Shown: in pieces, positions 20,453-43,804 of the stretch
Layout of the letters: the number at the start of each line of letters is the position of its first letter
Position numbering within the stretch: position 1 is the stretch's first letter
NCBI GenBank assembly: GCA_963751455.1
Contig: CAVVUN010000008.1
Span: 256,001 to 320,000 of the forward strand
Reading direction: 5' to 3'
Length of the DNA stretch: 64,000 nt
From: Nitrospirota bacterium
GTDB taxonomy: Bacteria > Nitrospirota > UBA9217
The notes under the pieces: model-generated
The model's input: the letters and a program-made list of their open reading frames with translations, nothing else
The model's database searches: none
What the model was told of the DNA's origin: nothing
Program-made: the position numbers and the translations under genes

Positions 20453-20495
20453 TGTGAGGATGGTCACATATTCCATCTTAGTTCATTTGTATTAT
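20453..20495 (+). promoter_or_regulatory. CRP box with class-II-spaced -10 element
   Basis: TGTGA-GGATGG-TCACA, then TATTAT 21 nt later. Confidence 0.8.
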
Positions 20496-20552
20496 AGACT
20501 ATCACAAAACAGCACCGCCGGTTCGCCGGTATTGCGCGAAGGAGGAAATAGT

Positions 20553-20960
20553 ATGAGGAGCAAGCGGTTTGGTTATGTTTTTGCGATAGTGTTTTTGCTT
20601 CTGATTTTAGGAGGGTGCGGCGGCGGATCGAGCGCCGTTCCGGGCGACCAGACATCCGCAGGCAGCGGCTACGGTGTTTTACCTGGCGGGAGCAGCGACT
20701 CGGAGGCAACCGGGATGGCAGCGCTTACCTGGGAAGCACCTACCACAAATGTCGATGGAACGGCCCTGACAAAGGTCGTCGGATACAGGATATATTACGG
20801 GTCGGCGCCCGGAGCATATAAAGGATACCTGGATGCCGGCAGCAGGCTTGACTTCTCGATCAGTGTCGCCCCCGGGACATACTATTTCGCTGTCAGTGCA
20901 TATAACAGCTCCGGCGGTGAGAGTATTCCTTCAAACGAAGTCAGCAAGACAGTATTATAA
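20553..20960 (+). CDS. lipoprotein with fibronectin type III-like domain
   Basis: Lipobox LGGC (Cys22), G/S linker, LTWEAP...GYRIYYG...GTYYFAVSAYN...ESIPSNEVSK. Confidence 0.88.
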   Translation: MRSKRFGYVFAIVFLLLILGGCGGGSSAVPGDQTSAGSGYGVLPGGSSDSEATGMAALTWEAPTTNVDGTALTKVVGYRIYYGSAPGAYKGYLDAGSRLDFSISVAPGTYYFAVSAYNSSGGESIPSNEVSKTVL

Positions 20961-21001
20961 TGATTGACAGGCTTTGACCCGCTGTTCGATAGCGCGGTCA
21001 T

Positions 21002-21036
21002 GGACGAATGAAATCTTCTCATTCGTCCTTTTTTTT
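21002..21036 (+). terminator. intrinsic terminator
   Basis: GGACGAATGA-loop-TCATTCGTCC followed by T8. Confidence 0.8.
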
Positions 21037-21074
21037 GCCTTTTTTCTCCATCAGATTAGCATAAACGTATTACC

Positions 21075-21252
21075 CCTAAAAACTGCAGTTGGACGCAGAT
21101 GAACGCAGATAACCGCAGATCAAACAAAAGAATTTTTAGAGAAAAAAATTCACCCGCTGGGTGGACTGCTTTTACGATACAGGAACGTTTTTTATCCGAC
21201 TTTATCTGCGTTTATCCGATTTTTCTGCGTCCCAAATGCTTTTTTTTACAGG
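21075..21252. mobile_element. CCT...AGG MITE (CGCAGAT subtype)
   Basis: Near-identical to 61594-61793 and to the reverse complement of 56933-57075; no clear target duplication. Confidence 0.85.
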
Positions 21253-21278
21253 TCTCTGGCAGCCACTCCGCTTCGACA

Positions 21279-22661
21279 TTATTGATGACTTGCGATGTGG
21301 TACAATCCATGCTTCTTCATGATGTCATAAAAAGTCGGGCGGCTGATGCCCAGGTCCTCTGCGGCTTGAGCGATATTTCCCTTATGCCGGTCCATCGCCC
21401 GCATGATCATATCCCGCTCTACCCGGTCTCTGGCATCCCGGAGTGTCCTGCTGTCGGGGACAAGCGAAACAGGTATTGACGGTTTCGATGAGAAACCAAG
21501 GTCATGCGGCTCGATGAGGGCGCTTTCCGAAAGAATGACTGCGCGTTGTATCTTGTTTTCAAGTTCACGCACGTTGCCCGGCCAGCCGTAGGACTCCATC
21601 ATTTCGAGCGCCGCTGCACTGAATCCTTTTATCCGTTTCTTGAATTCTTCGCCGAACTGCCGCAGGAATACGGTGGCCAGGAGTGCAATGTCTCCTTTCC
21701 TGTCCCGCAGAGGCGGAAGAGGGACTGTCACGACCCCGATACGGTAGTATAAATCTTCACGGAACCGGCCGCACTTGATCTCTTCAGTGATATTTTTGTT
21801 CGATGCCGCGATAATCCTGGCATCGACATTGATGTCACCCCTGCCGCCGAGCCTCTGGATCGTCTTCTCCTGAAGAAAACGGAGGAGCTTTACCTGGAGG
21901 GCGTGCGGCAGCTCACCGATCTCATCCAGAAATAGTGTGCCGCTATGCGCGAATTCGAACTTGCCCTGCACCTTGGCATGCGCCCCTGTGAACGCGCCTT
22001 TTTCGTGACCGAAAAGCTCCGACTCAAGCAGATTTTCCGGGATCGCACCGCAGTTGATCGGGATAAATTCTTTTTCCCGACGCTGACTGAGAGTGTGAAT
22101 GGCGCGGGCGACAAGCTCTTTTCCCGTTCCGCTTTCTCCCTGGATCAGCACTGCAGCTTCTGAAGCCGCCACCTTTCTTACCGTAGCAAATACTTCCAGC
22201 ATGGCCGGGCATTGTCCGATGATGCCGGTCAGTGCGCCGCTTTTTTTATTCAGCGTCGTTCGTAAACGGCGGTTTTCCTCCTCCAGCAGGTAAAGATGGA
22301 ACGCGCGCTTCACAATGACTTTTAACTCGGAAAGATCGATGGGTTTTTGGAGAAAATCATATGCCCCGTTCTGCACTGCACGCACGGCATTCGCCTTTTC
22401 CCCGCTGCCCGTCACAATGATAATCTTGGCAAACTGCTGAGTTGAAAGCATTTCTTGAAGACAGCGGAACCCCTCATCAGTTCCCTCTGCATGGGGAGGC
22501 AGACCCAGATCGAGCACTACGACTTTGGGCCGATGCTTCAGAAAAAGGGCGAGAGCTTCTTTCCCGTCACCGGAGGACAGCACGGTGTATTCTGTGCTGA
22601 AACCCCACTTCAACTGTTTCCGGATGTCTTCAGAATCGTCAACAATAAGCAGTTTTTCCAT
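21279..22661 (-). CDS. prsR: PEP-CTERM-box response regulator PrsR
   Basis: MEKLLIVDD...QLKW...LDLGLPP, GAFTGA, HTH; adjacent to prsK and an exosortase. Confidence 0.88.
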
Positions 22662-22821
22662 TGCATGGTACTCCTTTTTCTTTAGTGCCGAAAAACTTAG
22701 TAGTGCGCGTGAAAGCGGGCTGCACGCAGGGACGGCACGGACCATCTGACCAAGAGGCAAAGCTTCCCTATACGATACATAACCAAGTGTCAGTTTTTGC
22801 TTTTCGTCGACGCTTGGGCCG

Positions 22822-24934
22822 CTAAATTTTGATTTGCTGCGGCCGAGGCAACGATGCAGAATAAGCGCTGTCCAGCGCATACCGCAGTGTGCGGTCAGCG
22901 GCCGGAAGGCGGACGGTAAAACTGGAGCCCTTCCCACTCTCGCTCGACACTTCGATTGTGCCGCCAAGCGACTCGACGATCTTCTTGCATTGGTAGAGGC
23001 CGATACCCAGCCCTGTCTTTTTGGTGGTTCGGAACGGCTTGAAAAGCTGGTGCTGCATGAAGGCTCTGGTCATTCCGGACCCGCTGTCGGTAATCGTCAG
23101 GCACACACTGCCGTTTTGCCAGCCGGTTTCTATCGTGACCTGTGCCCGTTCTCCGCCCGCCTCAAGCCCGTTTTGAACGAGATTGATGATCACCTTCTTT
23201 AGTTCACCTGTGTCGATAAGGGCAGGCGCCGGTTCTCCGCGGCAGACGATATCCGCATCAGGCCTTGCCTTCCTCATCTCCTCTACGACCTCCGAGGACA
23301 AATCACGGATGTCGTGTCGTTCCATGCGCGACGCTCCGCCTTGGTCAACCACCTTCAGCTTTTGCGTCAGTTGTTTCATATTCTTCGAGCGCATTGCGGA
23401 TCGCTGTTATCATATCGCGCTGAAATTGCATATTTCCTATGTGTTCTTCGGCATTGTGCGTCATCAGCGCGAGGGTATAGGCAAGATTCTTCAAATCGTG
23501 GACAACAAAGGACGATAGACGGGCAGTGGCGGCAAGTTCCCGGGTTTCTATCAATTCCTCGGAAAGACGAAGATTATTGAGCAGCAGAGCGGCTTGCCGG
23601 GCCACGATCTTCATCAGGTCATAGTCCTCGTAAGTGAACGGCTCCTCCCCTATCGGCTCTCCGAAGACAACCACGCCTTCGGTCTTCCGGTTGCAAACCA
23701 GCGGAACGACCAGCCGCGCACGCGAAGTGCTGATAAACGAGATCTCTTCGTCATCGGGTTCGTATTCACCGTCAAACGGGTTCCATACGCGGTTCCGGTC
23801 GCAGAAATACGACTGCAGAGCCTCTGAGGGAATAAACCCGGTATCGGGACCGGCAACCTGATGCTGTCCCGCCGGCAGATACCTGCCGCTCGTTCGATTG
23901 AACAGGTACAGGAATGCGCTGCGAAGACCGAAGATTTCGCGGTAGGCTGCCGGGATTGCTTTTTCCATGTCGCAGACCGTCATGCAGGAGGCCAGCCGGC
24001 TGCTCAAATCGAGCCAGGTGTGGCGATAGTCGTGCTTGTGCTCGAAAAAATGCTTGCTCAGGAAGACCATCAGCGACCGCCGGAGCGTCTCCGAGAGGAT
24101 TGCGATTAAAAGGGCGATGCCGCCCGCAAAAGACAGGAAAATGGTCAGGTACCTGCCGAAGGACACATCGAAATACCGGATGCCTTCTCCGATAGTGCCC
24201 AATAGAACGAAGTAGATTCCGGCACCGAGCAGTGTAAGCGAACGGTACATCATATACCGGGAGACGGTAACGTTGATGCCGCTGCCGCGAACCAGTTTTG
24301 AGAACAAGATGAGGCACGATGCAATGATGAAAAAACCGGCCCTGACCGGCTGCAGTTGGGCAATTGTTGCGGGGTACAGCATCGCCTGGCTGAAAGTGAA
24401 GATCAGCACCGTCAGGATGCTGCCCGCTCCTATTACTTCGTACTTGATCTTGTCTCGGTCGGCCGCAGCGGTGGAAACGAATGTCGCCTCGAGGTTCATC
24501 AGGGCAACGATGAAGAAGACCTGAGCGGCCAGAGAGTACAGGGACCCGCCCCCGCCGGGGAAAAGCGCCACTGCGGCGCCGGGGTGGTTCAAAAGATCGA
24601 TCAGGGGAAAAACGATAGCCACGGCAGGCAGGAGAACAACGGCCGAGAGAAGGACGACTCCGCGCCGGGAAAAAACCGAGACCGATTCGCTTCGCGCAAA
24701 GGTTAAGCTGTACCACAGCAGGCACGCGGGCAGAAAAGCTGCAAAAACAATCCCAAGCGCTTTGTACTGGGAATAAGAGCCTCCGCCGTATTGTTCCGCA
24801 GCCTCGATTGCGGCGAGGCAAAGAGCGCTCAGCGCAAGGGCAATATCGGATGAGCTTTTCCGCTTTCCTATGCTGAGCGCGAAGACACAAAGAAGTGAGA
24901 AAATCGCGAGCGTTGAGAGGATTATTGGGTTCAT
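22822..24934 (-). pseudogene. prsK: PEP-CTERM system histidine kinase PrsK, split by a frameshift near 23390
   Basis: Multi-TM N-terminus, KHFFEHKHDYR, GAF, SSFVVHDLKN in one frame; HATPase (LFKPFRTTK, GLGIGL) in the other. Confidence 0.85.
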
Positions 24935-24937
24935 GGT

Positions 24938-26251: not shown

Positions 26252-26290
26252 AGTTGTCTCCTTTGCGTCAATGTGTTAAATATGTTAAGC

Positions 26291-26348
26291 AGTTGAGTTG
26301 TTGAGTTATCCGGTTTCTCAACTACTCATCCGCTGAACGACTCAACGG
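26291..26348. repeat. 8-bp-period inverted arms
   Basis: AGTTGAGT TGTTGAGT TATCCGGT / CTCAACTA CTCATCCG CTGAACGA CTCAACGG. Confidence 0.6.
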
Positions 26349-26358
26349 ATTCCGGAAC

Positions 26359-26787
26359 CTATTTACTGACCTCGTTCGAAAAAAAACTCTCTACTCCCGA
26401 CGCATCGTATGCCTTTACTGCGAAATAATGGGTTCCCGTATCGAGACCATGAACCGTATATGAGCATTCAGTTCGGCCGGGGCCTCCTTCCTGAGCATCG
26501 CTTTTCCTGCACGATAAATCGGGACTATCAAGCGGAATCTTTATGACCCGGTCATGCTTTTGGGGCGAGTTCCCATAATAAATCTTGTATCCTGCCAGGC
26601 CGGCTTTTCCGGTTCTATTCCTGGCGGGCTCGTTCCAGGTCAATACAACACTGCCTCGGCCTGCAGGGGGCGCATTACTTCTGCACCCGATCACTGCCGC
26701 GAGCAGGAGTACCATGCTGAAGCAGGTAATCCTGAAGAAAAATGAGATAAGCGTAATCTTTGTTTTATTTTCGTTCAAGAAATGCAT
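26359..26787 (-). CDS. FN3-like lipoprotein, related to 20553-20960
   Basis: VIGC lipobox-like motif, LTWNEP...GYKIYYG...HYFAVKAYD...ESFFSNEVSK; start uncertain. Confidence 0.82.
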   Translation of the reverse strand: MHFLNENKTKITLISFFFRITCFSMVLLLAAVIGCRSNAPPAGRGSVVLTWNEPARNRTGKAGLAGYKIYYGNSPQKHDRVIKIPLDSPDLSCRKSDAQEGGPGRTECSYTVHGLDTGTHYFAVKAYDASGVESFFSNEVSK

Positions 26788-26837
26788 GAGATATTCCTTT
26801 TTAGTGACAAGTCCCTCTTCTGCTTGTCCGGTTCAGG

Positions 26838-27793: not shown

Positions 27794-28214
27794 CCTGAAA
27801 AAAACATTTAGGACACGGATAAAATCCGATTAACGCGGATTTATAAAGACATTAAACCTTTATAATCCTAAAAACGGCATTTGGACACGGATGAACACGG
27901 AAATAACGGATAAAAACAGTGCGCTAGAACAAAATAACATCTCGCCCTTTTGGAGAATTATGAAAGAGTTGTATATCTTTGTAAATACGTGTTAATCAGA
28001 TTTTATCCGTGTCCAAAAGCTCTTTTCAGGATAATTCACCCAAAGGGCGAAATGTTACTTTATCTATCGCGCTGTTTTTAATCCGTAGGCGCCTGCACCC
28101 ACCGATTACGAGCCTGCGGCCAGCGATTATGCGTGCGAAGCGCAAATGCAGGCTGTGAGCATGCGCGAGTGCAGGGCGTTCCGTGTTCATCCGTGTCCAG
28201 TTTCTCTTTTTAGG
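27794..28214. mobile_element. older CCT-family MITE in reverse orientation with two nested insertions
   Basis: CCTGAAAAAAACATTTAGGACACGGAT...ATCCGTGTCCAGTTTCTCTTTTTAGG; interrupted at 27867-28030 and ~28087-28178. Confidence 0.8.
27867..28030. mobile_element. 164-bp CCT-family MITE
   Basis: Identical to 856-1019; flanked by ATAAT duplication. Confidence 0.92.
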
Positions 28215-29938
28215 TCATGAATAGTGCCGCTCTCAGGAGAGGAAGCCATTAACGTGCTGCGTTCTCTCGTTACGAAAGCATTGACGGTGACGCCATTTTG
28301 AGCTGAGGAAGGAACAGCCGAAGCTACAGGTCTACCGATGTCTCCGCTGTTGATGTTTTTTTCGTGGTCGTCCTTCAGTGTCTTTTTGTCGGTCTTGCCG
28401 TTCGCCGATTTCGGGAGTCGGTCGACAAATATAACGTGTTTCGGAACCATGAACGATTGAAGGCGGTCTGCACAGTGCTTCAATACTTCCCGGATTTGAG
28501 GCCGGACCTCGCCGGGGCATACCACGCATGCCACAACCGCCTGACCCAGTATTTCATCCGGCACACCGAAGACAGCCGCTTCCAGTATCCCCTCCATGGC
28601 ACACAGCACGTTTTCAACTTCCCGGGGGCTTACCCGCTCACCCCTGGTCTTTATCATATCGTCCTTCCTGCCGACAAAGTAAAGAAATCCTGCCTCGTCT
28701 TTCCTGAACAGGTCACCCGTGTAGAGCAGGCGCTCGCCGGGCAGGCGGCCGGGACGAAAGGTCTTTGCTGTCAGCTCCGGCGCGTTCCAGTAGCCGCGCA
28801 TGACATGCGAGCCCCTGATGACCAGCTCGCCGACCTCGCCTGGCAACGCCTCGTCCCCGGACTCGTTTACGATAAAGACCTCGGTATTGGGTATAGCCTT
28901 TCCAACCGACGCCGGCCTCCGGGAAAGCTCTTCGGGCGGAAGATAGGAGACACGCTTGCACTCTGTCAGCCCGTACATAGAAAAAAGCCGTGCTTTCGGC
29001 AGGAGCACAGCAAGCTTCCGTATATATTCTACAGGCAGGGCCGCCGCCGTATTGGTCACGTAGCGAAGCGAGCTGAGATCATACCGATCAAGGTTTTTCA
29101 TTTTCAGAAGCAGAAACGCCGCGATGGTCGGAACCAGCGGGAACCCGGTGGCGCGCTCCCGTTCAATGCGTTCGAGAATTTTAACGGGATAGAGGAAGGC
29201 CTTTTCGAGAACAACCGTTCCCCCGAACATCACGGCCATGATTACCTGGTACAGGCCGTAATCGAATGAAAGCGGAAGCACACTTACGATAATGTCGTCG
29301 GGCGTATTCCCGATATACTGAATAATGCTTCGCGCTGCGGAGATAACGTTGTGGTGCGTGGACATGACTCCTTTGGGCTCCCCGGTTGAACCAGAGGTGT
29401 AGATGAGTGCCGCAAGGTCCTGATCAATGCACGCTGCCGTATGCACTGCCGGCGGGTCGGCAGTCAGTTTATCCTCCCGCAGTACTTCGGCCCAGGATAA
29501 CCGGGGACCCGGAAGCGTCTGCGGCACGTACTCGCTATCGCCCACCCATAGTGTAGTGCATTCCCGGCCGAGTCCGGCAAGGGCCTCCTTCACCACATCG
29601 GCCTTACCGGTATCGGTTATAAGAACGGTGGCTCCAGAGTCCCGGACGATATAGCCCAGCTTGCCGGCTTTCATGGTACTGTCAAGGATCACAAAGACCG
29701 CGCCTGCCTTCAGAACGCCGTACATTGAGATCACTGCTTCGATCGAATTATCCAGGAAAATGATTACGCGGTCACCCCGTTTCAATCCGAGAGACAACAA
29801 AGCATCGGAGAGGCGGGCTGAAGAGTATTCCAGCGCCCGGTAGCTCAGGCGTCCTTCGCCGCAAATGACGGCGTTCTTGTCCGGGAACTCAGCGGCCGTA
29901 CGGGACAAATATTCATGCACTAAGACGGGGCTGAACAT
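28187..29938 (-). CDS. class I adenylate-forming enzyme (acyl-CoA/ACP ligase type)
   Basis: YTSGSTGEPKG, LSFDYG, MYGLTE, TGD, GRKDDMIK, PKSANGK. Confidence 0.92.
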   Translation of the reverse strand: MFSPVLVHEYLSRTAAEFPDKNAVICGEGRLSYRALEYSSARLSDALLSLGLKRGDRVIIFLDNSIEAVISMYGVLKAGAVFVILDSTMKAGKLGYIVRDSGATVLITDTGKADVVKEALAGLGRECTTLWVGDSEYVPQTLPGPRLSWAEVLREDKLTADPPAVHTAACIDQDLAALIYTSGSTGEPKGVMSTHHNVISAARSIIQYIGNTPDDIIVSVLPLSFDYGLYQVIMAVMFGGTVVLEKAFLYPVKILERIERERATGFPLVPTIAAFLLLKMKNLDRYDLSSLRYVTNTAAALPVEYIRKLAVLLPKARLFSMYGLTECKRVSYLPPEELSRRPASVGKAIPNTEVFIVNESGDEALPGEVGELVIRGSHVMRGYWNAPELTAKTFRPGRLPGERLLYTGDLFRKDEAGFLYFVGRKDDMIKTRGERVSPREVENVLCAMEGILEAAVFGVPDEILGQAVVACVVCPGEVRPQIREVLKHCADRLQSFMVPKHVIFVDRLPKSANGKTDKKTLKDDHEKNINSGDIGRPVASAVPSSAQNGVTVNAFVTRERSTLMASSPESGTIHDLKRETGHG

Positions 29939-29989
29939 GCGGTCACCTCCTGAGGACGGCCAAATTAAAAACGGCAACGTGCAAAAAAT

Positions 29990-30116
29990 GTAGATATCCG
30001 GAAAAAAGGATCCATCCGCAGATTTCGCAGACGGACGCAGATTTTAAAATCATTTCTGGTTTACATAATCTGTGGCATCTGCGTAATCTGCGGATAAATA
30101 ATGACTGAGTAGTTAC
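29990..30116. mobile_element. degenerate MITE ending CTGAGTAGTTAC with CGCAGAT arms
   Basis: Right end matches 56869-56880; internal ATCCGCAGATTTCGCAGA...TCTGCGTAATCTGCGGAT. Confidence 0.65.
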
Positions 30117-30149
30117 ATTGCTTTAACGATAAAATGAAATTCTTTTTAT

Positions 30150-30313
30150 CCTAAAAACGGCATTTGAACACGGATGAACATGGAAACAGCGGATCAAAAC
30201 AATGTGATAGAGCAAAAAGCCATCTCGCCTTTTGGGTGAATCCATTACTGTTCGTAACTTCCTATAAATCCGTGTTGATCAGATTTTATCCGTGTCCAAC
30301 TGCTTTTTTCAGG
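30150..30313. mobile_element. 164-bp CCT-family MITE (diverged copy)
   Basis: Same ends and length as 856-1019; TTTAT duplication (30145-30149, 30314-30318). Confidence 0.9.
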
Positions 30314-30314
30314 T

Positions 30315-32309
30315 TTATTTGGACTTTGCATCCCTACCGCTTCTCCGGTCGAAAACGACGTCCGGACCGGTCGGGATGAGCAATTCTAATGAAAAGTTCG
30401 CGATAAACCGGTCATAGATGATCTGCGAAGACAGAATGCCGGCAAGCGCCATGCCTTCGACTTCGCTGACCTGCTTGACCGAGTCCAGCTTGTTCAGCAG
30501 GACTTTAACCTTTGCCGGATCGAACAGGCCCGCGTCCGAGATCGCGGCTCCGGAAAGGAAGATCTCCCGGTGAAGAGCGGAGGCGTGCAGGAGACTCTCT
30601 CTGATCGGGGCCCTATACGGATGTTTGGGACGGCCCACGATCTTTTTGGGCACTATCTCCTCAAAAACTTTTTTCAGCAGGTATTTCTCATTCAAGCCCC
30701 TGATCTTCAGCTTTGCGGGAACCCGTCCCATGAACTCGATGATCCTGTGGTCCAGGTACGGCGGTCTGACCTCAACCCCGTTTCCCATCGAAACCCGGTC
30801 TCCCTGCGAAGAGAGCAGATAGGTGCTCAAAAAGATGATCGATTCCAGGTACTGCGCCTGCGCAAGAGCGTCCCACGTGCCGTAGGCCTCCGGCAGGTTT
30901 TTTTGTAAGTCGTCCAGGCAGGAATAAGCGCCGATCTTCTCCTTCAATTCCTGTGAAAAAAATATTTTAATCTTAGATGTATTCTGCCAGCGTATGGCAT
31001 GCGAATACAGGGGGTCGTCCGTTCTCTCCAGCCCGGCCCCGAAGAAGGACTGCAGAAAAAACTTGGGCCGGGGGTTGTTCTTGAAGATATACGGATAGAG
31101 TCTTGCTACCAGAAGCGGACGGGATTTGGATCCCGGTTGACTGGCCCAAAACCTTCTGATTTTCGCTTCCCGGAAAACGTTGTACCCGGCAAATATCTCG
31201 TCGGCCCCCTCTCCGGTAAGCACAACCTTGAACCCGTTGTCTGCCACAAACCGCGACAGCAGGAACAGCGGAACCGGAGCGGTCCTCAGGAGCGCCTTTT
31301 CGCAATGCCACAGTACCGTGCGGAAATGTTCTCCGATCTTTTCGTTGGTGGCCTGAATGCCGATATGGTCCGTCTGGAGAAAACCGGCCATATACTGCTG
31401 AAACTCACCTTCGTCAAAGTCGCCCTCATCGAACCGTATACCGAACGTCCTGAGCCGGTTGTTGAAGTTCTTTTTTGCAACGGTGGTTATACCCGATGAA
31501 TCGAGGCCGCCGCTCAGGTAGCAGGCGACCGGCACATCAGCCCTGAGCCGAATTCTGACCGCATCATGGATCAGTTCCTTCAACCCGTTTTCAATTTCCT
31601 CCGTCGGCCACGTTAACTGCTCATCAGGACGGCTGAAGGGAAGATCCCAATATTTTCGAACAGCGATTTTGCCGCCGGAGAGCTTCAGATAGTGGCCAGG
31701 CTGCAGTTCATAAATGTCCTTGAAAAGCGTACGGCCGGGCAGGGTCGTCCAGAACGTGAATATCTGGTCCAGGGCCAGAGCATCGATGACGCGTTCCACC
31801 TCCGCTGCCATGAAGATCGATTTTATTTCGGAAGAAAAGAGCAGTCGGCCGCGGTTGACCGTATAATGCAGCGGCAGAATGCCTACCCGGTCGCGGGCGA
31901 GGAACAATTCCTTTTCGCGCGAGTCCCATATGGCGAATGCAAATTGGCCGTTCAGCTCCTCGACGCACCGGATCCCGCGGTCCTCATAGAGGTGAAGAAT
32001 GACCTCGGTGTCTGTCGAGGTGGAAAAACGATGACCGCGGCGTATCAGCGCGTGGCGCAGCTCCGGATAGTTGAATATCTCGCCGTTATAAACGATCCAG
32101 AGCGTCTCATCCTCATTATGAATCGGTTGAGCGCCGCCCGAAAGGTCTATGATGCTGAGCCTGGTATGGCCGAGCCCCACCCAATCGTCGAGGTAGACGC
32201 CCGAACCGTCCGGTCCGCGGTGCCTGATAACGCCCGTCATGCGGTTAATCATTTCAGGGGAAACAGGACCGGGTCCCGACAGGTAGCACATGCCCGTTAT
32301 ACCGCACAT
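30315..32309 (-). CDS. asnB: asparagine synthase-like glutamine amidotransferase
   Basis: MCGI N-terminus, HRGPD, RLSIID, NGEIFN, LSGGLDSS, TGEGADE. Confidence 0.93.
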   Translation of the reverse strand: MCGITGMCYLSGPGPVSPEMINRMTGVIRHRGPDGSGVYLDDWVGLGHTRLSIIDLSGGAQPIHNEDETLWIVYNGEIFNYPELRHALIRRGHRFSTSTDTEVILHLYEDRGIRCVEELNGQFAFAIWDSREKELFLARDRVGILPLHYTVNRGRLLFSSEIKSIFMAAEVERVIDALALDQIFTFWTTLPGRTLFKDIYELQPGHYLKLSGGKIAVRKYWDLPFSRPDEQLTWPTEEIENGLKELIHDAVRIRLRADVPVACYLSGGLDSSGITTVAKKNFNNRLRTFGIRFDEGDFDEGEFQQYMAGFLQTDHIGIQATNEKIGEHFRTVLWHCEKALLRTAPVPLFLLSRFVADNGFKVVLTGEGADEIFAGYNVFREAKIRRFWASQPGSKSRPLLVARLYPYIFKNNPRPKFFLQSFFGAGLERTDDPLYSHAIRWQNTSKIKIFFSQELKEKIGAYSCLDDLQKNLPEAYGTWDALAQAQYLESIIFLSTYLLSSQGDRVSMGNGVEVRPPYLDHRIIEFMGRVPAKLKIRGLNEKYLLKKVFEEIVPKKIVGRPKHPYRAPIRESLLHASALHREIFLSGAAISDAGLFDPAKVKVLLNKLDSVKQVSEVEGMALAGILSSQIIYDRFIANFSLELLIPTGPDVVFDRRSGRDAKSK

Positions 32310-32321
32310 AGATTATGGTTT

Positions 32322-32392
32322 CGGAAGGCGGGAGAGCGTAGGGTGAGCGGTAACTCTTTACCCCCTCCCGACTTCCGCCTTACGCCTTCCGT
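32322..32392. repeat. 7/8-bp-period inverted arms
   Basis: CGGAAGGCGGGAGAGCGTAGG...CTCCCGA CTTCCGC CTTACGC CTTCCGT. Confidence 0.55.
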
Positions 32393-32406
32393 AATTCCAC
32401 TCAGTA

Positions 32407-32679
32407 CTAGGCGGTCATACCCGGTTTATCCGGACATTCGCTGACTTTTTGTTCCAGAAAGCGTTCGATATTCTTCAAGGTGTCCAGGTTTTCCGGCAGC
32501 AGCTCATCATCGCTGATAGATATGCCATAGGTCGCCTCCAGAAAACTTACGAGCTCGAGGATGCCTGTGGAATCGATGATCCGTGTTCCCAGAAACGAGG
32601 TGTCGTCTTTGATATAGCCGTTATCTCCGAATAGAAAATTTTGCACTATGAATTCACGCACTGCAAATATATAGCCCAT
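32407..32679 (-). CDS. acyl/aminoacyl carrier protein
   Basis: IIDSTGILELV phosphopantetheine Ser motif; PENLDTL. Confidence 0.9.
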   Translation of the reverse strand: MGYIFAVREFIVQNFLFGDNGYIKDDTSFLGTRIIDSTGILELVSFLEATYGISISDDELLPENLDTLKNIERFLEQKVSECPDKPGMTA

Positions 32680-32721
32680 GGTTTCCTCCCCTTTATTGGA
32701 TTTCGGTTGTTCCATACTCAC

Positions 32722-33744
32722 CTACAAACCCAGCTGTTCCCTAACCTGCGCGCGTACCGTTTCATCCGGCCTTTCCGAAAGTTTGGCCAGTCCTTCTTCC
32801 CGCTTCATACAGCCGGCCCTGACCAGGCCCGCGATTTCCCGGGCATAGGGATGAAACCGATGCCGCTCCAGGTGCGTTTCGTTGGCGAAGCCGTTCAGCA
32901 GGCAATTCGTCGAGTTGGCATCCGTATCTTTCGGCTTCTCCCATCCGAGGGTTCTGATCTCTTCTATCACGCTTTGTTCATCATAGGGCAGGAATGCCAG
33001 GGGATTCACGTTGAAAAAAAAGAGCGGTCGTCCGGACGATTCCTGCTCGAGCAGCCGGTAATGGCGCTCCTGTAAAATGAAGGACTGCAGCTCTTCTCCC
33101 ATGACAGGGAGCAGGATGTCCCTGACGGCGTCCTGGGTCTGGCGGATCATGGAGATGTTGAGCCTGATCATCGAGGACTGCACCGGCGCCTGCCCGGGCG
33201 ACCAGCCGTATACCATGAACGGGATCCGCATTTCTATCGCGGTTTTCAAAATGAAGGACTTGACCAGATGCATGCAGGTATTACAGATGGAGCTTGCCCG
33301 CTCGAGCGCCTTCAGCGGATACAGTTCTTCGCTGATCGACCGCCTGAATGCGTGAATAAGAGCTTCGCGCTTCGGAGATACCATGAGATGGGACACATTG
33401 AGCGTTTGGGTCACACGTTGGATATTGGTCAAGGCCTGGGGAGAGACAAAACCATGATTGAAGGTGATTGCCAGCACGCTCAGGCCATACTTTTCTTTCA
33501 AAAGCTTCAGGGTGTAGGAGCTGTCTTTGCCGCCGCTATAGGCAATGATGACGTCATAGGGGGCCTTGTATTCCTGTTTACGCTGCTTGAGAAAGTGATC
33601 GAACTTACTTCTATATTTTTCCCTGTCAGCCCCGGATATCGTGCTTTGCGTTTCGCTGTGCCGGCAATAGTTGCAAACGCCGTCCCGGTCAAAGCGAATG
33701 CCGGGGAAGGTCTCAGGAAGAACACACTTTAGGCAAATATTCAT
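32722..33744 (-). CDS. PP-loop N-acetyl-sugar amidotransferase-like protein (WbpG-like)
   Basis: CLKCVLP...CNYC, YSGGKDS, CNTC, STNC. Confidence 0.8.
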   Translation of the reverse strand: MNICLKCVLPETFPGIRFDRDGVCNYCRHSETQSTISGADREKYRSKFDHFLKQRKQEYKAPYDVIIAYSGGKDSSYTLKLLKEKYGLSVLAITFNHGFVSPQALTNIQRVTQTLNVSHLMVSPKREALIHAFRRSISEELYPLKALERASSICNTCMHLVKSFILKTAIEMRIPFMVYGWSPGQAPVQSSMIRLNISMIRQTQDAVRDILLPVMGEELQSFILQERHYRLLEQESSGRPLFFFNVNPLAFLPYDEQSVIEEIRTLGWEKPKDTDANSTNCLLNGFANETHLERHRFHPYAREIAGLVRAGCMKREEGLAKLSERPDETVRAQVREQLGL

Positions 33745-33745
33745 T

Positions 33746-34731
33746 TTATTTGGACTCCTTTTGCTGGTCATCGAAGAGAAAAAAACATTTACAACTCCTC
33801 AGGCCGCTGAGCACGGATACACTCCTTTTTGTTTTCTGTTCACTGATGAGACTGAGCAAATACCGTCCATAGCCGTTTTTTCTCAACGGCTCCGCAAGGC
33901 TGCGACACACGCTCCGCATCGATATAGCCCATGCGATAGGCAACCTCTTCTATACAGGCAACCTTGAGTCCCCGCCGCTTTTCAATAGATTCTATAAAAG
34001 TGCTTGCCTCGAGCAGCGACTCATGGGTGCCCGTATCCAGCCACGCGAATCCGCGGCCCAGGAGCTCGACACTCAGCTGTCCCCGCATTAAATATTCAGA
34101 GATTACATCGGCAATCTCAAGTTCACCGCGGGCTGACGGCTTGAGACGCGATGCGATTGCAACAGCGTCATTGTCGAAAAAATACAAGCCAGGAACAGCG
34201 AAATTCGACTTTGGTTTTTCCGGTTTTTCCTCTATGCTCAGGACTTTTCCGTAAGCGTTGAACTCCACGATCCCGTATCGCTCCGGATCTCTTACCTCGC
34301 AGCCGAAGATAAGACCACCCCTTCTCAACCCGTACTGCTCTCTGCAGGATTTCCGGCAGGCCGTGCCCGTAAAAAATGTTATCGCCGAGGACCAGGCAGA
34401 CATTATCCGCGCCGATGAAGTCTCTGCCGATGATAAAAGCCTGTGCGAGACCTTCGGGCCGCGGCTGCACTGCGTAGGAAAATCGAAGACCGAGCGAACA
34501 ACCGTCGCCGAACAGACGCTCGAAATTGGGGAGGTCCCCGGGAGTGGAAATGATAAGTATTTCGCGAATGCCCGCCAGCATGAGCACCGAGAGCGGGTAA
34601 TAGATCATCGGCTTGTCGTACACGCTCAGCAGTTGTTTATTTACCGCCAGTGTGATCGGATACAGTCTTGTACCTGCTCCGCCCGCAAGGATGATCCCCT
34701 TCCATCGGCAATGGTCTTGTTCGCTTTTCAC
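33746..34731 (-). pseudogene. rfbA: glucose-1-phosphate thymidylyltransferase with two frameshifts
   Basis: [14 protein letters not shown]...GDNIFYG, then EEKP...WLDTGT in a second frame, then KNGYGRYL in a third. Confidence 0.9.
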
Positions 34732-34749
34732 GATTATAGGCTCATCATG

Positions 34750-35976
34750 TCAACGCCGGGGGCGATAATATTTCCGCTGAATAATTCTTCGGGCTGTACC
34801 CAGAATTGAGCGAGTTTTTTCTTTTAACGATAATTTTAACCAGTTATCAAAGAGAGAGAACCCAACGAGTCGGGGTGTTGGCACGCCCAATGTTTTCATA
34901 CTCAGCAGTCTTCCCCAGATTGCTCCTCTTTTTGAAAGCAGGTTCTGCTGGGACGCTCTCAATATTTCAGCGTTGGCGCGTTCGAGCGAGATATAGCCTG
35001 CTTTGAGAGCTCCATGAAGAATCCGGCGGCCCCTTTCCGTTCTTACAAGAACGAGGGAATGACCCTGCTCGCCTTCTTTGATTCGCCGATACCAGGGATC
35101 TCCACAGGAGATATCTGCGAACTCACTGGTCCCGTCTGGGCAAAGGTAACACCGAAACGGTCTGTATTTTTGCACAAAACCCCATGATTGCTTATAGGAA
35201 ACCTGATGAGAAGGTGTTTTCTCTCCTTTTAACGTCACCGTTGCCATGCCCGGCCAGCCTTTTCCCCTATAGCGAATTTCCTGAACCTCCTCAGGAGATA
35301 TATGGAATTGATTGAGCAAGTCCAATGTCCCCTGAGTGGACGGTGTGCCTGCGCAAAATATTCCGATTGCAACTCCGGTTTTCTTATCAAGCTCCGGTCG
35401 TAGACGTTGGGCCTTCCTCAAAGCCGCCACATCGCACGGTTTTCCCATAAATACACACTCGCGCGCAGCAGCTTCTATCTGATGCAGGCCATCGCAAGGG
35501 GAAGCGGGAGAATACCGTGAACCCGTTCTGGAGAGAATATCCGCCCGGTTTTGACTAAAGGCAGTCTTATTTTTATACGGCCTCGTTTTATCCGGTCCTG
35601 CATGGAGCACACCTGCCATTCTTTCTTTTTCGAGGCAATACAGCGCAAGAGCACTGGCAATACCCCCGGAAGATCCTTGAAATCGAATCTCCGCGTCACG
35701 TGCATATCCTTCCCATATTTCGAGAATACATCCCCACTCTTTTGAACTTGTTACTAAACCGTCAAGGAGATTTCCGTCATAAGCCGTCTCATATCCCGGA
35801 CAAACCTTAAGGCATTCATTACAGCCACTACACCTGCCGGCATCAAGAACAGGCCTGATCCCGTCGCCGGTAATATCCATAAGGGAAATATTTTTTTGGG
35901 GACAAATGGATGCGCAAGCGCCGCAGCCGACACAGAGTCGCCAATTCGATATGTCCCGAACAGTAAGTAACTGCAT
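34750..35976 (-). CDS. FrhB/FdhB-family Fe-S protein (polysaccharide-locus type)
   Basis: Two ferredoxin motifs, SSGG, GSRY, GKPC, FCAG, ADISCGDPW. Confidence 0.88.
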   Translation of the reverse strand: MQLLTVRDISNWRLCVGCGACASICPQKNISLMDITGDGIRPVLDAGRCSGCNECLKVCPGYETAYDGNLLDGLVTSSKEWGCILEIWEGYARDAEIRFQGSSGGIASALALYCLEKERMAGVLHAGPDKTRPYKNKTAFSQNRADILSRTGSRYSPASPCDGLHQIEAAARECVFMGKPCDVAALRKAQRLRPELDKKTGVAIGIFCAGTPSTQGTLDLLNQFHISPEEVQEIRYRGKGWPGMATVTLKGEKTPSHQVSYKQSWGFVQKYRPFRCYLCPDGTSEFADISCGDPWYRRIKEGEQGHSLVLVRTERGRRILHGALKAGYISLERANAEILRASQQNLLSKRGAIWGRLLSMKTLGVPTPRLVGFSLFDNWLKLSLKEKTRSILGTARRIIQRKYYRPRR

Positions 35977-37289: not shown

Positions 37290-37294
37290 CCGCG

Positions 37295-38707: not shown

Positions 38708-38888
38708 CTTTAAGACAGCTCGCTCAGTCGAATTTTGTATTTATAAAATTACTACAGAATAAACAATTTCACATCATACTCATGGTTTGTTATGAGGCTA
38801 GATAAACGGAACAGCCCGTGTCTCCTTCAGGCTCTCTCGTCAGAAAAAAAGGGATGCATTGTGGAAAGTATATTAATAAAAACAACAG

Positions 38889-40208
38889 TCATCTCGTCGT
38901 ACCCAATTGCTCCGGGGAAAGTCGTTCAATGGCTGCTGCCTCGTGAACGTTCCCAACCGGAACTGTTGCAGACCATACGGAGGCTATGGCCGCAAGGCTC
39001 AGGTAAAGGAAGAGAAACGACTGGTCGAAGTAGGAAACACCTATAAAGGTGACGACGTGTGCGAAAAGCGACGCCCCAAGCGCCCATATCATGAAGCGAG
39101 ACTGCGATGACAACTCAGGCATCTGCCGCAGTGTCTGACCTACGAAGGAAAACCCCTTGGCCAAGACGGCAATGAACAGCAGCATTAAAGGCAGCCCCCC
39201 TGTTACTCCCATGTGAAGGTAATAATTTGTGATATCACTGTGATCCGCACTCCAGCCGACGCCGGTAACCATCCAATCGCGGGTGTAATCCGTCCCAGCC
39301 AGCCACCAATCAGAGAGCTGCTCGAAAGCAGACTGAATAAGCCTTGATCGGTGATATCCTGTGCTCCCGCCGGTTAAATCAATGCGCGCTATGAGATAAT
39401 AGGCCGGCGCCTTCATAATCAATTCCAGGCCGATGTAGCCGAGAACTGCAAGCCATCGGACAAGCCGCATCCGATGGCGGTAGCGCCACATGAATAATGC
39501 TCCGATAGCTGCCATGAAGCTCAAAATCGGCCCGCTTGAGGAGGCGGCAAATATCATTATCAAACAGGCTCCGACTCCTATGAGTGCCGCTTTTCGGGAC
39601 CGATTCCACAGGACGATCACAAGCGGCAGACAGACTGCTCCGACCGTTCCTGCCAGAATGGAATGGGCAAAAGGACCTTGGGCGCGGAGCCGGCCGACGC
39701 GGATAGTCGGACTTTCCGAAACACCGCCCAGCAGAGAGAAAAGATTATGCGCTGTAAGTTTTTCATAGAGCATCTCAATTGCCAGCGGTACAAGCAGGAT
39801 CGCTGTAACGCGACACAGGGCAACCACATCATCGAATGATTGACAAAAAATTCGAAGAAGGAAGTAGATTCCACATGCATTGTAAACAAGACCAAGCCGG
39901 CTTATGAATGCCTTTGAGGGCTCATCGTGGAAGAAGCTGCTCAACAGCGCCCAGGCAGCCCATATCACCATCAGCCGGTCCATTGCATTTAATCCGCCGG
40001 CCAACCGCTCACCTCTTGCGATCACGCGCACAACACCAGCGGCCACCAACATTCGGATCACGGTGAATGTAAACGGTCCTATCTCGATTCCCTGTCCCAG
40101 AGTCATGTAACAGGCTCCGAGCAATAGAGGCACGGGCGCCCAGCGACGTGGCAGCGCGAGGAGCGCTACGGTACTTAGCATCACAAATATTACAGCAATG
40201 AAGGTCAT
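38889..40208 (-). CDS. Wzy/O-antigen ligase-like membrane protein
   Basis: Multi-TM, RAQGPFAHSI, STGYHR, DITNYYL. Confidence 0.8.
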   Translation of the reverse strand: MTFIAVIFVMLSTVALLALPRRWAPVPLLLGACYMTLGQGIEIGPFTFTVIRMLVAAGVVRVIARGERLAGGLNAMDRLMVIWAAWALLSSFFHDEPSKAFISRLGLVYNACGIYFLLRIFCQSFDDVVALCRVTAILLVPLAIEMLYEKLTAHNLFSLLGGVSESPTIRVGRLRAQGPFAHSILAGTVGAVCLPLVIVLWNRSRKAALIGVGACLIMIFAASSSGPILSFMAAIGALFMWRYRHRMRLVRWLAVLGYIGLELIMKAPAYYLIARIDLTGGSTGYHRSRLIQSAFEQLSDWWLAGTDYTRDWMVTGVGWSADHSDITNYYLHMGVTGGLPLMLLFIAVLAKGFSFVGQTLRQMPELSSQSRFMIWALGASLFAHVVTFIGVSYFDQSFLFLYLSLAAIASVWSATVPVGNVHEAAAIERLSPEQLGTTR

Positions 40209-40470
40209 CCGGTCTCTTGGATTGGTCTAGCCGTGATCTGCTTTACATTCCACTGTCGATCTCTGTTATCCTGAAACTTAGAAGCGGCAGTGCTTTCAGA
40301 AGAAGCCTAAAGGAGGAGCCGTTTTGGCTTAATGCTTGCGCGACGATTCATTGGGTCTTTGATAAACCAATTATTACGTTTGTGGTCTGAATCACAGATA
40401 ATTACTTTGAACAATACGAATATACAACTAGTGAAAAAAGTATTATTAATTTTCAATTTCACGATCGTAT

Positions 40471-40513
40471 CGTGAGCTAAATCACATATCGTAAGCATTA
40501 ACTATGATAAGCT
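40471..40513 (+). promoter_or_regulatory. CRP box with extended -10
   Basis: CGTGA-GCTAAA-TCACA, then TGaTAAGCT (hexamer 21 nt after the box); second box TGTGG-N6-TCACA at 40381-40396. Confidence 0.7.
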
Positions 40514-40567
40514 TTAACTAGTGATTAGGTTTCTAGTCGCTATAGAATACAATCGAGGGGGTCAATT

Positions 40568-41944
40568 GTGAAAAAAACAATGTGGAGTCTGGTCAGTTTA
40601 GTTGTGTTCATTCTGTGTCCGACTTTTTTATGGGCAGCTACTATTTACGTCTCGCCCACAGGCGCCGGGAGCAAAACCGGTAGTGATTGGAACAATGCTT
40701 ACCAGGGTCTTCCTTCATCAATGGTAAGGGGAAATACGTATGTGATAACGGGAGGAAGTTATTCTGCAAAGTCATTTAGTGACGCTCAAAGTGGTTCTAC
40801 GGTAATTACCATTAGAAAAGCATCTTCTCTTCCGCAGTATAGAGACGATCTTATAGCCGGGTGGAATTCAAACTACGAGAGAGATCAAGCTGTTTTTACC
40901 GGCCAGAGTACTTTTAATACCGGATATTACATTATTGACGGCATAACTCCCTCAACGGGCCACTGGCAAACTTCCGGTTATGGAATAAAATTTCGTGCGA
41001 CGAGTTCCGGAACCAAGTACCTGGTCACGACGGGGTCCAGCAGCGTAAATTATGTCACGCTTAAACATATAGAATATCAGCATCTTGGGTCTAGCTCGGA
41101 CACGCAGCAATTTGCGATACATCCCGGCCTTGACGGTACCTTTGATTCATGGACAGTTGCGAATAGTTATTTTCATGAGTTACAGGTGTTCATGAAACTG
41201 TCTGGCTATGCTCCCAAGGGGTGGATCATCGAACACAACTATTTTGGGATTAACTGGAGTTCCTCGACCAATCACGGAGAACAACTTTCCTTTTCCCATC
41301 TGGGGGGTTCTACACCGCATCACGTCAGATATAATTGGTTTGAACCTTTTAGAGGCACCGGATCATTGATTTATCTCTGGTATCAGAACAAGACTGCAAA
41401 CGACATTTCAATCTATGGAAACGTCTGGCATAATCCCCCATCCGGCGGTAATGGAGTGATTGGGACTGGAAGCACCGGTAATTCGCCTTTGAACTATGAC
41501 AACTGGAAAATCTACAACAACACTTTTATCAACGGCACTGCTCAAATAGCGATAGGTTTTGCCGACTCTCCGCCTACTGGCTGGGAAATAAGAAACAATG
41601 TGTTTTATAACTGTCAAGCTAGATACATGTTTGGTGCTCCGAACGGAGTGATCAGCAACAACTACCGCAACGGAGGCTCATGGGGATTGGGAACCTGCAC
41701 GAATTGTGTGACTTCTGCCGAACCGGTTTCAACGCTTTTCCCGAATTACAGCAGCGGAGATTACCGTATAGGGTCAAATTCCCAGGCAATAGATGCGGGG
41801 TTCAGTTTAAGTTCCCCCTACAATCTAGATCCCGTCGGTACTTCACGCCCGCAATCCACGGCGTTTGACATGGGAGCCTATGAGTTCTCAACGGGCAGTG
41901 CCTTAGCGATGCCAAATCCTCCTACTAACTTACGCATTAACTGA
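40568..41944 (+). CDS. secreted right-handed beta-helix-like protein, paralog 1
   Basis: Signal peptide (LWA/A), [14 protein letters not shown] / IRNNVF repeats, AIDAG...DMGAYE. Confidence 0.82.
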
Positions 41945-42598
41945 GATATTGTTCCGGTCAATCTCCGCTCTTACGGGAGATTGACCGGACTTCAATATGA
42001 TGCCACGCTGCGTGAGCAGGCTGATAACACGTTCCACGCAATCTTCAACAGGAGTGAAGGCGGTATCAACCACAAGGTCCGGCTGCGTAGGCTCCTCGTA
42101 GGGTGATGACACCCCCGTAAATTCCTTGATCTCTCCTGCCCTGGCCTTTTTGTAATGGCCCTTTACGTCCCTTTGCTCACAGATCTCGATTGAACATTTG
42201 CAATATATTTCGACGAAGTCCCCGGAGCCCAGCAGCTCCCGGAGCCGTTGTCGGTCAGCCCGAAAAGGCGATATAAAGGCCGTAATTGCAATAACTCCCG
42301 CATCTACGAACAGCTTGGCCATTTCCCCTATGCGCCTGATGTTCTCGGTTCGGTCTTCCTTGGAAAAGCCGAGGTCCGAGCAGAGCCCATGGCGGACGTT
42401 GTCGCCGTCAAGCACGTACGTGCGGCAGCCCATGTTGTGCAGCTTTTCCTCCAGCGCATGCGCTACCGTGGATTTTCCGGCGCCTGAAAGGCCCGTAAAC
42501 CACAGACAGATGCTCCGATGTTCATTTATTTTTTCCCGTCGTATACGGGTAACCGTTGCGTGATGCCACAGTATATTATTAATGTTTCCGGTAATCAT
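41930..42598 (-). CDS. cysC: adenylyl-sulfate kinase
   Basis: [38 protein letters not shown]. Confidence 0.95.
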
Positions 42599-42728
42599 AG
42601 TCAATTGCTCCAAAGTTGAGACCACTGATGCCAGCCGTTCGCTGCCTGGTCGCCTGTTAGCCATCTTTCACCTGCCTGGTGTTCGGACACATCGGATTTC
42701 CCGGTTTTTGTGTATAGCCGCAAAGACA

Positions 42729-43652
42729 TTACTGAAAAACCGGATGAATATGCGGGTCATATTCAAATCGTTTCATACTGTTTAACGTCATACTGGTAAT
42801 AAATTTTTCCTCATAGGGATGAATAGACTCTTTCCAATGTTTTGCTGCTTTTTTATTGAAGCCTTCAGAAGTTTTTCCTGTTACACTGGATGCCTGCCCC
42901 GCTTTTGGGTAGAGCATTTCGGGAATAAAATCAATCTCCGTAAACTCGCACAGTCTCCTGATGGTTTTTTCAGGCTCTGCAACAAGATCCTCGAACTTAA
43001 AAAGAGCATAATTTTTTATTCCTTTATATTTCGAATGCAATTTTGATGTCCACATATATTCAAGGATTACGTAATTTATCATCATCTGCCTTATTGCAAA
43101 TCTCAAATGGGGATGTTTTTGCATTCTTATCTTCGTGCCACCTGGATCATTTGTTTTGGATATTGCAATTGCTCTTGGATCGCGTGTTATGTGTATTATC
43201 TTGCATTCGGGATACCACTCAAGTAATTTTGGAACATAATTTACGGAAACGGGAAACTTCATACAACATCGGCCGCACCCTTTAAATTCCGTAATTTCCT
43301 CTATTATTATTTTAAATATGCTTTCTAATGATTTATTTGACTTCATAAGCCTGTTACGAAGTACAGTTTTAAACTCATTATTATTGACTTTTTCTATATC
43401 ATAGAACCAGAATGGATTAGCAAGTCCAGGTTCCAACCGACGCGAGAACATAGCCTCTATCATTTTATCAATATTATTTTCATTCGATAAATCCCCCACT
43501 GTATGCCGTAAAAAAAACCTGAAATCTTTTCTCCATTGATTGAGATAAAACATCTCACCCATTCTATAGATTTCAGGATGCTGTGCAAAAATGTTGAGCC
43601 ACAGAGTACTGCCGGACCTGCGAAGACCAACGATAAAAATGGGATTTTTCAA
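42729..43652 (-). CDS. sulfotransferase family protein
   Basis: 5'-PSB GLRRSGST and 3'-PB RDPRAIAIS, FEDLV; AT-rich. Confidence 0.9.
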   Translation of the reverse strand: MKNPIFIVGLRRSGSTLWLNIFAQHPEIYRMGEMFYLNQWRKDFRFFLRHTVGDLSNENNIDKMIEAMFSRRLEPGLANPFWFYDIEKVNNNEFKTVLRNRLMKSNKSLESIFKIIIEEITEFKGCGRCCMKFPVSVNYVPKLLEWYPECKIIHITRDPRAIAISKTNDPGGTKIRMQKHPHLRFAIRQMMINYVILEYMWTSKLHSKYKGIKNYALFKFEDLVAEPEKTIRRLCEFTEIDFIPEMLYPKAGQASSVTGKTSEGFNKKAAKHWKESIHPYEEKFITSMTLNSMKRFEYDPHIHPVFQ

Positions 43653-43760
43653 TTTAGCACCTCATTATTTATTATGAAATTGCCGATACCGGCTTATCTT
43701 TTCGAATCAGCTTTGCCATGAAACTGCGCCAATAGTATTAATATAATTAAAACAAGGAGT

Positions 43761-43804
43761 TGTGAGATGAATCACATACGATGAGCCCTCTCGTTTGTTA
43801 AAGT
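43761..43804 (+). promoter_or_regulatory. CRP box with extended -10
   Basis: TGTGA-GATGAA-TCACA, then TGtTAAAGT (hexamer 22 nt after the box). Confidence 0.78.

Follow-up and report, generated by a model that had tools for sequence, protein, structure and literature searches.

A stretch of 64,000 nucleotides, positions 256,001 to 320,000 of the forward strand of contig CAVVUN010000008.1 from a Nitrospirota bacterium (assembly GCA_963751455.1), is referred to here as the window. It carries a gene for a Crp/Fnr-family transcription factor, called crp below (its product, the neighbouring Crp), and four copies of the palindrome TGTGA-N6-TCACA, called the box, allowing up to one mismatch. Three of the boxes lie upstream of genes on the + strand, and the − strand is a polysaccharide locus in which PrsR, PrsK and an exosortase score over their family cut-offs. 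The features are listed below in window coordinates, with box centres computed by taking each −10 hexamer as −12 to −7.

19611 to 20354, − strand: crp, Crp/Fnr-family transcription factor; recognition helix RETVTR, A and P at the positions of CRP R82 and S83, W at that of S128
20453 to 20468: box, no mismatch, between crp and the divergent lipoprotein gene; centre at −41.5 for the latter, on the + strand
20490 to 20495, + strand: −10 hexamer TATTAT, 21 nucleotides after the 20453 box; predicted start near 20502
20553 to 20960, + strand: predicted lipoprotein of 135 amino acids with a lipobox-like LGGC and one FN3-type domain; conserved core target
40381 to 40396: fourth box, one mismatch, 90 base pairs before the 40471 box; no −10 hexamer at 20 to 22 nucleotides
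40471 to 40486: box, one mismatch; centre at −41.5
40508 to 40513, + strand: −10 hexamer TAAGCT, 21 nucleotides after the 40471 box; predicted start near 40520
40568 to 41944, + strand: predicted secreted right-handed beta-helix protein of 458 amino acids with a choice-of-anchor Q domain (NF041518, over cut-off)
43761 to 43776: box, no mismatch; centre at −42.5
43799 to 43804, + strand: −10 hexamer TAAAGT, 22 nucleotides after the 43761 box; predicted start near 43811
43868 to 45241, + strand: beta-helix paralog of 457 amino acids, 71% identical to the 40568 protein

Three of these boxes, with 0, 1 and 0 mismatches, had been named by an earlier prediction made from the sequence of the window, and their coordinates, the hexamers at 21, 21 and 22 nucleotides and the class II spacing were all recovered; the fourth box, at 40381, had been missed. 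Class II CRP sites lie near −42 (PMC1635313), and the three boxes have this geometry relative to the −10 hexamers, standing in place of a −35 element, with the transcription starts being predicted ones. No TTGACA-like bases are found at the −35 position of the three promoters, and the predicted leaders are 48 to 57 nucleotides long. The 40381 box is a possible auxiliary site and has no counterpart upstream of the paralogous 43868 gene. The original prediction also held that boxes cover all three + strand genes from 20.4 kilobases onward. The genes at 20553, 40568 and 43868 are indeed the only confident + strand genes there: three weaker calls (34363, 58606 and 60867) are short or overlap − strand genes, and comparison with relatives favours the − strand reading at 60.8 kilobases.

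The 20553 protein has no Pfam match at 1e-5, and its FN3 label comes from the original prediction and from sequence likeness rather than from a family match. A second FN3-type lipoprotein gene, at 26359 to 26787 on the − strand behind the exosortase gene, encodes a protein 38% identical to it and has no box of its own. The nearest named Atlas clusters of the 40568 protein are beta-helix/Pel9A-like, its predicted fold is poor (predicted local distance difference test, pLDDT, 45.5), and no close ortholog is found among 40 relatives. It is 34% identical to the product of a boxed gene near another crp ortholog, where the box is perfect and a −10 hexamer follows at 22 nucleotides. From the Atlas neighbours and the gene position, a role of the beta-helix proteins in processing the local polysaccharide is conceivable. 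The 40471 and 43761 boxes are the best-kept stretch of the otherwise diverged DNA upstream of the two beta-helix genes, and on this comparison the kept box reads as a footprint.

The genome-wide scan proposed by the original prediction covered 5.72 megabases, with gene positions from our own gene calling. It has revealed 12 perfect boxes, all 12 intergenic (0.66 expected) and none within genes (1.1 expected), whereas each other spacer length gives 0 to 5 perfect sites. With up to one mismatch there are 51 intergenic boxes, and 21 of them have TAnnnT at 20 to 22 nucleotides, compared with 2/23, 4/33, 4/28 and 3/18 for the wrong-spacer controls with spacers of 4, 5, 7 and 8. Only three of these 21 class II-type boxes lie in the window and 18 lie outside it, so that the motif is genome-wide and not local, as had been supposed. 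A box-plus-−10 model, with training sites from other genomes alone, matches this genome 23 times at 21 boxes (two near-duplicate pairs), compared with 12, 10 and 4 matches when the spacing is shifted. All 23 are intergenic and all 23 face a gene in the sense direction (background sense share 0.53), the three window sites ranking 19th, 22nd and 23rd. By a crude hydrophobicity rule, 15 of the 23 targets look exported, compared with 351 of 1500 background genes. Among the products of boxed genes are a DUF4382 lipoprotein, an OmpA-domain lipoprotein, a Big_2 lipoprotein that shares the FN3-type domain of the 20553 protein, and an Ig/FN3 secreted protein, as well as lytic transglycosylases, two PilZ proteins, two D-Ala-D-Ala carboxypeptidases, an FtsH paralog, a bactofilin and a duplicated RpoD-like sigma factor.

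FNR/Dnr-type recognition helices have the form E-x-x-x-R without R180. The helix of the neighbouring Crp has R180, and none of the nine TTGAT-N4-ATCAA sites of the genome is intergenic, so that an FNR/Dnr-type system does not fit. A ranking of all inverted 5-mer pairs is dominated by repeats and is uninformative. The palindrome CCCCG-N6-CGGGG occurs about 150 times in the intergenic DNA, where other inverted repeats are abundant too; these are possibly clustered regularly interspaced short palindromic repeats (CRISPR) or elements like repetitive extragenic palindromes (REP).

The closest relatives of the neighbouring Crp are found in Nitrospirota assemblies (best 83% identity), and 10 of 40 relatives have an ortholog with more than 50% identity. 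A box precedes a divergent FN3-type lipoprotein gene at 7 of the 10 orthologous loci. A wider set of 80 loci of Crp relatives, 1.2 megabases in total, is mostly from Nitrospirota, with about a dozen named otherwise (Desulfuromonadales, Geobacter, Syntrophales, Deferribacteres and others). Among the 76 loci with DNA upstream of crp, 24 have a box within 900 base pairs, and in 22 of these 24 a −10 hexamer lies 21 or 22 nucleotides away on the side facing away from crp, with none at 20 to 22 on the crp side. Across the 80 loci, a class II −10 hexamer stands behind 51 of 96 boxes (41 offsets at 21 and 11 at 22), compared with 7/69 for the wrong-spacer controls together (3/31, 0/20 and 4/18). Clustered at 80% Crp identity, the loci form 53 clusters, and 28 of these, or 46 of the 80 single loci, carry at least one box with a −10 hexamer at 21 or 22 nucleotides. 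FN3 lipoproteins and other secreted proteins make up the usual targets, and most targets have signal-peptide-like N-termini as judged by eye. Of the 44 longest loci, 20 have a marker of polysaccharide synthesis or of the Prs system, and the FN3 domain is seen in 28 of all 80, so that the association with a PrsR locus is common but not fixed. A close PrsR match (at least 55% identity) is found in 7 of the 44 long loci.

Tandem boxes 24 to 34 base pairs apart are seen at four loci (L024:2343-2391, L026:1821-1869, L247:3881-3920 and L248:642-691), where only the gene-proximal box has a −10 hexamer, and this arrangement suggests two dimers per promoter. At ten loci (L093, L095, L100, L105, L107, L110, L112, L114, L115 and L123), several of them labelled Thermodesulfovibrionales or Ca. 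Sulfobium, the gene divergent from crp encodes a distinct RpoD-like sigma factor and has a class II box, and a Crp-to-sigma cascade is possible there. These sigma factors belong to a different paralog, with 38 to 55% identity to the sigma factors of the present genome.

The crp gene has a ribosome-binding site at its start at 20354. The neighbouring Crp scores over the cut-offs for PF00027 (cNMP_binding), PF13545 (HTH_Crp_2) and PF00325, which places it in the superfamily, but its 89.9 bits against the NCBIfam CRP family NF008732 fall below the cut-off of 266. Its predicted model has a pLDDT of 84.8 and Foldseek matches to CRP-family proteins, which confirms the fold alone. In an alignment with Escherichia coli CRP, to which it is 26% identical, G71, E72, R123, R180, E181 and R185 are kept, and A, P, S and W stand at positions 82, 83, 127 and 128. 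In a residue survey of 79 of the 80 relatives, one being too short, R180, E181 and R185 are present in 79/79, as in CRP proper, and so are G71, E72 and R123; R82 is present in 0/79, P83 in 69/79 and W128 in 61/79. When matches from a representative library are added (98 of 150 kept by length), the clade comprises 115 sequences with a FastTree support of 0.999 in a tree rooted on E. coli CRP; none has R82 and 86 have W128. The DNA-reading half of the original label 'CRP-type' therefore stands, including the RETVTR helix, but the label does not hold for the cyclic AMP (cAMP) pocket, where R82, S83 and S128 are replaced.

R82, S83, T127 and S128 are cAMP contacts (PMC11253593). In DdrI of Deinococcus, which binds TGTGA-N6-TCACA without cAMP, a tyrosine at position 128 helps fill the pocket (PMC11253593). 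The neighbouring Crp, which lacks the cAMP contacts and has a bulky residue at position 128, resembles ligand-free members of the family at the sequence level, and because R82 and S83 are absent and W stands at 128, it probably does not sense cAMP. The output of ligand-free CRP-family factors probably follows their own concentration (PMC12937710). On the + strand at 16551 to 18940, genes for a histidine kinase and an NtrC-type regulator converge on crp; a similar pair lies downstream of crp in two relatives (G014 and G023), with an extra large gene between.

In relatives, cyclic-dinucleotide riboswitches accompany the boxes. Rfam gives 9 matches in 8 of 20 loci, and a hidden Markov model (HMM) built on 13 training sequences, three of them from the same 80 loci, gives 29 matches over the 80 loci, 18 of which follow a class II box. 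No riboswitch is found in the window by Rfam or by our HMM, and none of the six RF01051 matches of the genome has a box within 300 nucleotides upstream. A riboswitch for cyclic di-GMP (c-di-GMP) of class I would form a second check after the promoter in many relatives, a layer that is absent in this genome. The nearest published pairing of a CRP-family promoter with such a riboswitch is the gbpA promoter of Vibrio cholerae (PMC4545359).

It is rather probable that the three boxes, likely bound by the neighbouring, probably cAMP-independent Crp at class II spacing, are members of a genome-wide surface and envelope regulon of about 20 promoters. A Crp dimer centred at −41.5 or −42.5 would stand in for the −35 element and recruit a sigma70-type RNA polymerase, and such recruitment would switch on surface and envelope genes independently of PrsR and sigma54. 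The regulon would be rich in exported and envelope proteins, and its conserved core in relatives would consist of FN3/Ig lipoproteins and secreted beta-helix-type proteins encoded in or near polysaccharide loci. The Crp clade, mainly from Nitrospirota and with a remodelled pocket, would work without cAMP in the manner of SdrP and DdrI. Its output would be set by the amount of Crp or by a ligand other than cAMP, and in many relatives the riboswitch would act after the promoter.

It is possible, although rather unlikely, that the neighbouring Crp binds a ligand in its remodelled pocket, such as c-di-GMP, cyclic GMP-AMP (cGAMP), cyclic GMP (cGMP) or a metabolite, as Clp or NtcA does. The retention of G71, E72 and R123 throughout the survey and the stereotyped substitutions, x-P at 82-83 and W128, suggest selection on the pocket, and the targets in relatives are tied to cyclic-dinucleotide riboswitches. 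Against this, CRP, NtcA and Clp keep the Arg-Gly motif of the cassette (PMC12937710), whereas the clade lacks the arginine. Ligand-free members fill the cavity, and a protein that itself responded to the riboswitch signal would presumably leave less need for a riboswitch layer.

In a narrower version, which overlaps the regulon proposed above and differs from it in scope alone, the neighbouring Crp serves the FN3 and beta-helix genes and a few distant secreted-protein genes, and most of the remaining boxes are served by another factor. Besides the neighbouring Crp, the genome encodes three Crp/Fnr factors, two of them with R180 and E181, and it has five class III cyclases; the candidates are a REVVSR paralog at C12:214277 and a REAVSK paralog with a cAMP pocket at C15:73954, and the third paralog lies at C1:293207. 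We regard this version as unlikely. No box is found in the 7 to 11 kilobases around each of the other three crp genes of the genome, and five of six relatives with the REAVSK paralog but no member of the neighbouring-Crp clade are devoid of perfect boxes. G009, the only relative with the FtsH-paralog gene and one that has the Crp ortholog, keeps the box of that gene. FN3 genes away from crp have a box plus a −10 hexamer at 8 of 15 loci from ortholog genomes compared with 0 of 6 from the others, in one of which the FN3 frame was not recovered. Within the family, all 9 genomes that have the Crp ortholog also have the FN3 domain at E ≤ 1e-20, as against 0 of the 15 that lack it. This comparison is partly circular: some of these genomes had contributed sequences to the alignment behind the profile, the threshold was chosen afterwards and the genomes, being related, are not independent. 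This co-occurrence and the boxes that flank the orthologs support the original prediction of a CRP-family factor, with the neighbouring Crp as the likely binder of the window boxes.

Several observations weigh against a single wide regulon of this Crp, in addition to the circularity of the FN3 profile. Three genomes outside the family have the FN3 domain without a Crp ortholog. Perfect boxes separate genomes with and without the ortholog poorly: the family totals are 25 for the 9 genomes that have it and 24 for the 15 that do not (7 and 13 for the N7 control), and G002, which is 89% complete and in which the ortholog was not found, has 7 boxes. Of 15 boxes checked in genomes with no ortholog found, 4 are followed by a class II −10 hexamer, compared with 2 of 5 in ortholog genomes, and one of those 4 precedes a REC-PilZ homolog of the targets of this genome. 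The sigma-factor box is kept in 0/22 relatives (one locus without upstream DNA dropped), the NuoE-like box in 0/17 and the REC-PilZ box in 1/27 homolog loci (one locus left out). At 34 of the 80 ortholog loci, the DNA examined has no box with a −10 hexamer at 21 or 22 nucleotides. The two beta-helix boxes probably go back to one duplication event and are not independent. The box count of the window alone is marginal, with 4 matches against a shuffle mean of 1.23 and at least 4 in 7 of 100 shuffles, and the box signal therefore comes from the position of the sites and not from the window count. The low model scores of the three window boxes, and the G that they share after TGTGA/CGTGA and that most other boxes of the genome lack, also favour a division of labour. 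The core targets are well tied to the neighbouring Crp and the periphery less so, and another Crp may serve part of the distant boxes.

Two candidates were rejected on the same comparisons. A sigma-factor cascade as a conserved feature, for the paralog of this genome, fails since relatives lack the box and mostly have a plain TTGAC...TATAAT promoter, and the NuoE-like gene fails as a conserved target. The genome has two 96%-identical copies of the RpoD-like sigma gene (450 amino acids; L009:3047-4399 and L010:2067-3416), with counterparts of 77 to 90% identity in all 24 family relatives. Both copies have an upstream box-like site that is absent in relatives, and a DNA search with the sigma promoter matches only the second copy of the genome. 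One of the copies may be contamination, which is reported at 5.4%.

A role of the boxes as PrsR (sigma54) enhancers or repressor operators is very improbable. PrsR, encoded next door, scores over its family cut-off, and a GG-N10-GC sigma54-like site precedes the first beta-helix gene, at 40325 to 40339 of the + strand. A factor bound to a box that covers the −35 region can act as a repressor as well. The sigma54 pattern in the window is however at the chance level (15 compared with a mean of 18.1), close PrsR matches are confined to the 7 of 44 long loci given above, and the fixed gap of 21 to 22 nucleotides to a sigma70-type −10 hexamer, with no −35 match at the three window sites, fits activation. 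The PrsR site is a TTTACA-containing motif about 63 nucleotides before a −24/−12 site (PMC1569441), unlike the box. Control separate from PrsR and sigma54, as originally proposed, is thus supported. Sigma54 control of crp itself, on an MrpABC-like model, was rejected since the pattern occurs in 3 of 76 upstream regions compared with 5 on the opposite strand. That the boxes are chance matches in AT-rich intergenic DNA has a negligible probability, since, whatever the shuffle count of the window allows, 12 perfect intergenic boxes against 0.66 expected and a sharp peak at 21 to 22 nucleotides, present here as well as in 80 other loci and not in the controls, refute chance for the motif as a class, although single one-mismatch sites may be chance.

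The PrsR/sigma54 character of the locus is less marked than the original prediction supposed. The prsK gene, at 22822 to 24934 on the − strand, is split into two frames by a frameshift near 23400, whereas a close relative has one gene of 692 amino acids; it is a pseudogene or an assembly error. No PEP-CTERM protein is found by a crude pattern, and the HMM search was empty, as was its control. Glycan genes at 28187 to 33771, 41930 to 43652 and 61798 to 63609 encode two AMP-ligases, an acyl-carrier-like protein, two asparagine-synthase-like amidotransferases, a WbuX-like protein, an APS kinase and a sulfotransferase, a gene content that suggests an acylated, amidated and sulfated glycan. Broken genes at 33840 to 34750 and 58776 to 61340 include a split integrase-core transposase, the fragment of a nucleotidyl-transferase and the pieces of what in G011 is a single 404-amino-acid frame.

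Ligand-free Crp factors are already known, and that a CRP-family dimer can activate class II promoters is textbook knowledge. What the window adds is the genome-wide extent, the phylogenetic tie of the factor to its core target, the clade-wide pocket signature and the riboswitch-less case. More tentatively, and with somewhat less than an even chance, the Crp clade with the x-Pro...Trp signature, mainly from Nitrospirota with outliers in Geobacter-like and Syntrophales-like genomes, may be a master switch of a surface and biofilm programme, with the riboswitch as a second input in many genomes. Such a programme would include wall enzymes, FN3/Ig lipoproteins and secreted beta-helix proteins that process glycans, joined in some lineages by an additional RpoD-like sigma factor; the present genome would be a riboswitch-less version in which the regulon has expanded to about 20 promoters, possibly with a new ligand. 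Literature searches in a library with few subscription journals listed nothing on this Crp clade or regulon. For the surface-protein genes of Nitrospirota, a phylum in which no such regulon was found in the literature searched, the analysis proposes a regulator, a site and a promoter class that can be tested. It also adds a well-defined clade of 115 sequences, all without the cAMP arginine, to the material for studying the loss or change of the ligand in CRP-family factors.

Several known systems resemble the one described here in part. The PrsK/PrsR regulon of PEP-CTERM proteins shares its locus, since prsR, prsK, the exosortase and polysaccharide genes lie together here, but it uses another motif and another polymerase (PMC1569441), and the targets here have no PEP-CTERM tail. 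V. cholerae gbpA has a CRP-dependent promoter for a surface protein followed by the Vc1 c-di-GMP-I riboswitch, as in many of the relatives, but its promoter is cAMP-dependent (PMC4545359) and the window has no riboswitch. Clr of Sinorhizobium meliloti, the best PDB sequence match to the neighbouring Crp (E-value 2.8e-24), acts at class I and class II distances, the latter as here; it differs in that it has an R-S cassette, requires cAMP or cGMP and binds GTNNC-N4-GNNAC (PMC10127613). DdrI of Deinococcus and SdrP and TTHB099 of Thermus have an altered cAMP pocket with an aromatic residue at 128, tyrosine in DdrI and tryptophan here, and SdrP (PDB 2zcw) matches the neighbouring Crp with an E-value of 5.5e-11; DdrI keeps R82 without R185, whereas the clade described here does the reverse (PMC11253593, also for the name SdrP). 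E. coli CRP differs in R82, S83, T127 and S128, which are replaced here at 26% overall identity, and in its catabolic targets, in place of which exported and envelope proteins are found, but it shares with the neighbouring Crp the same TGTGA-N6-TCACA box, R180, E181 and R185, and a class II site near −42 (PMC1635313).

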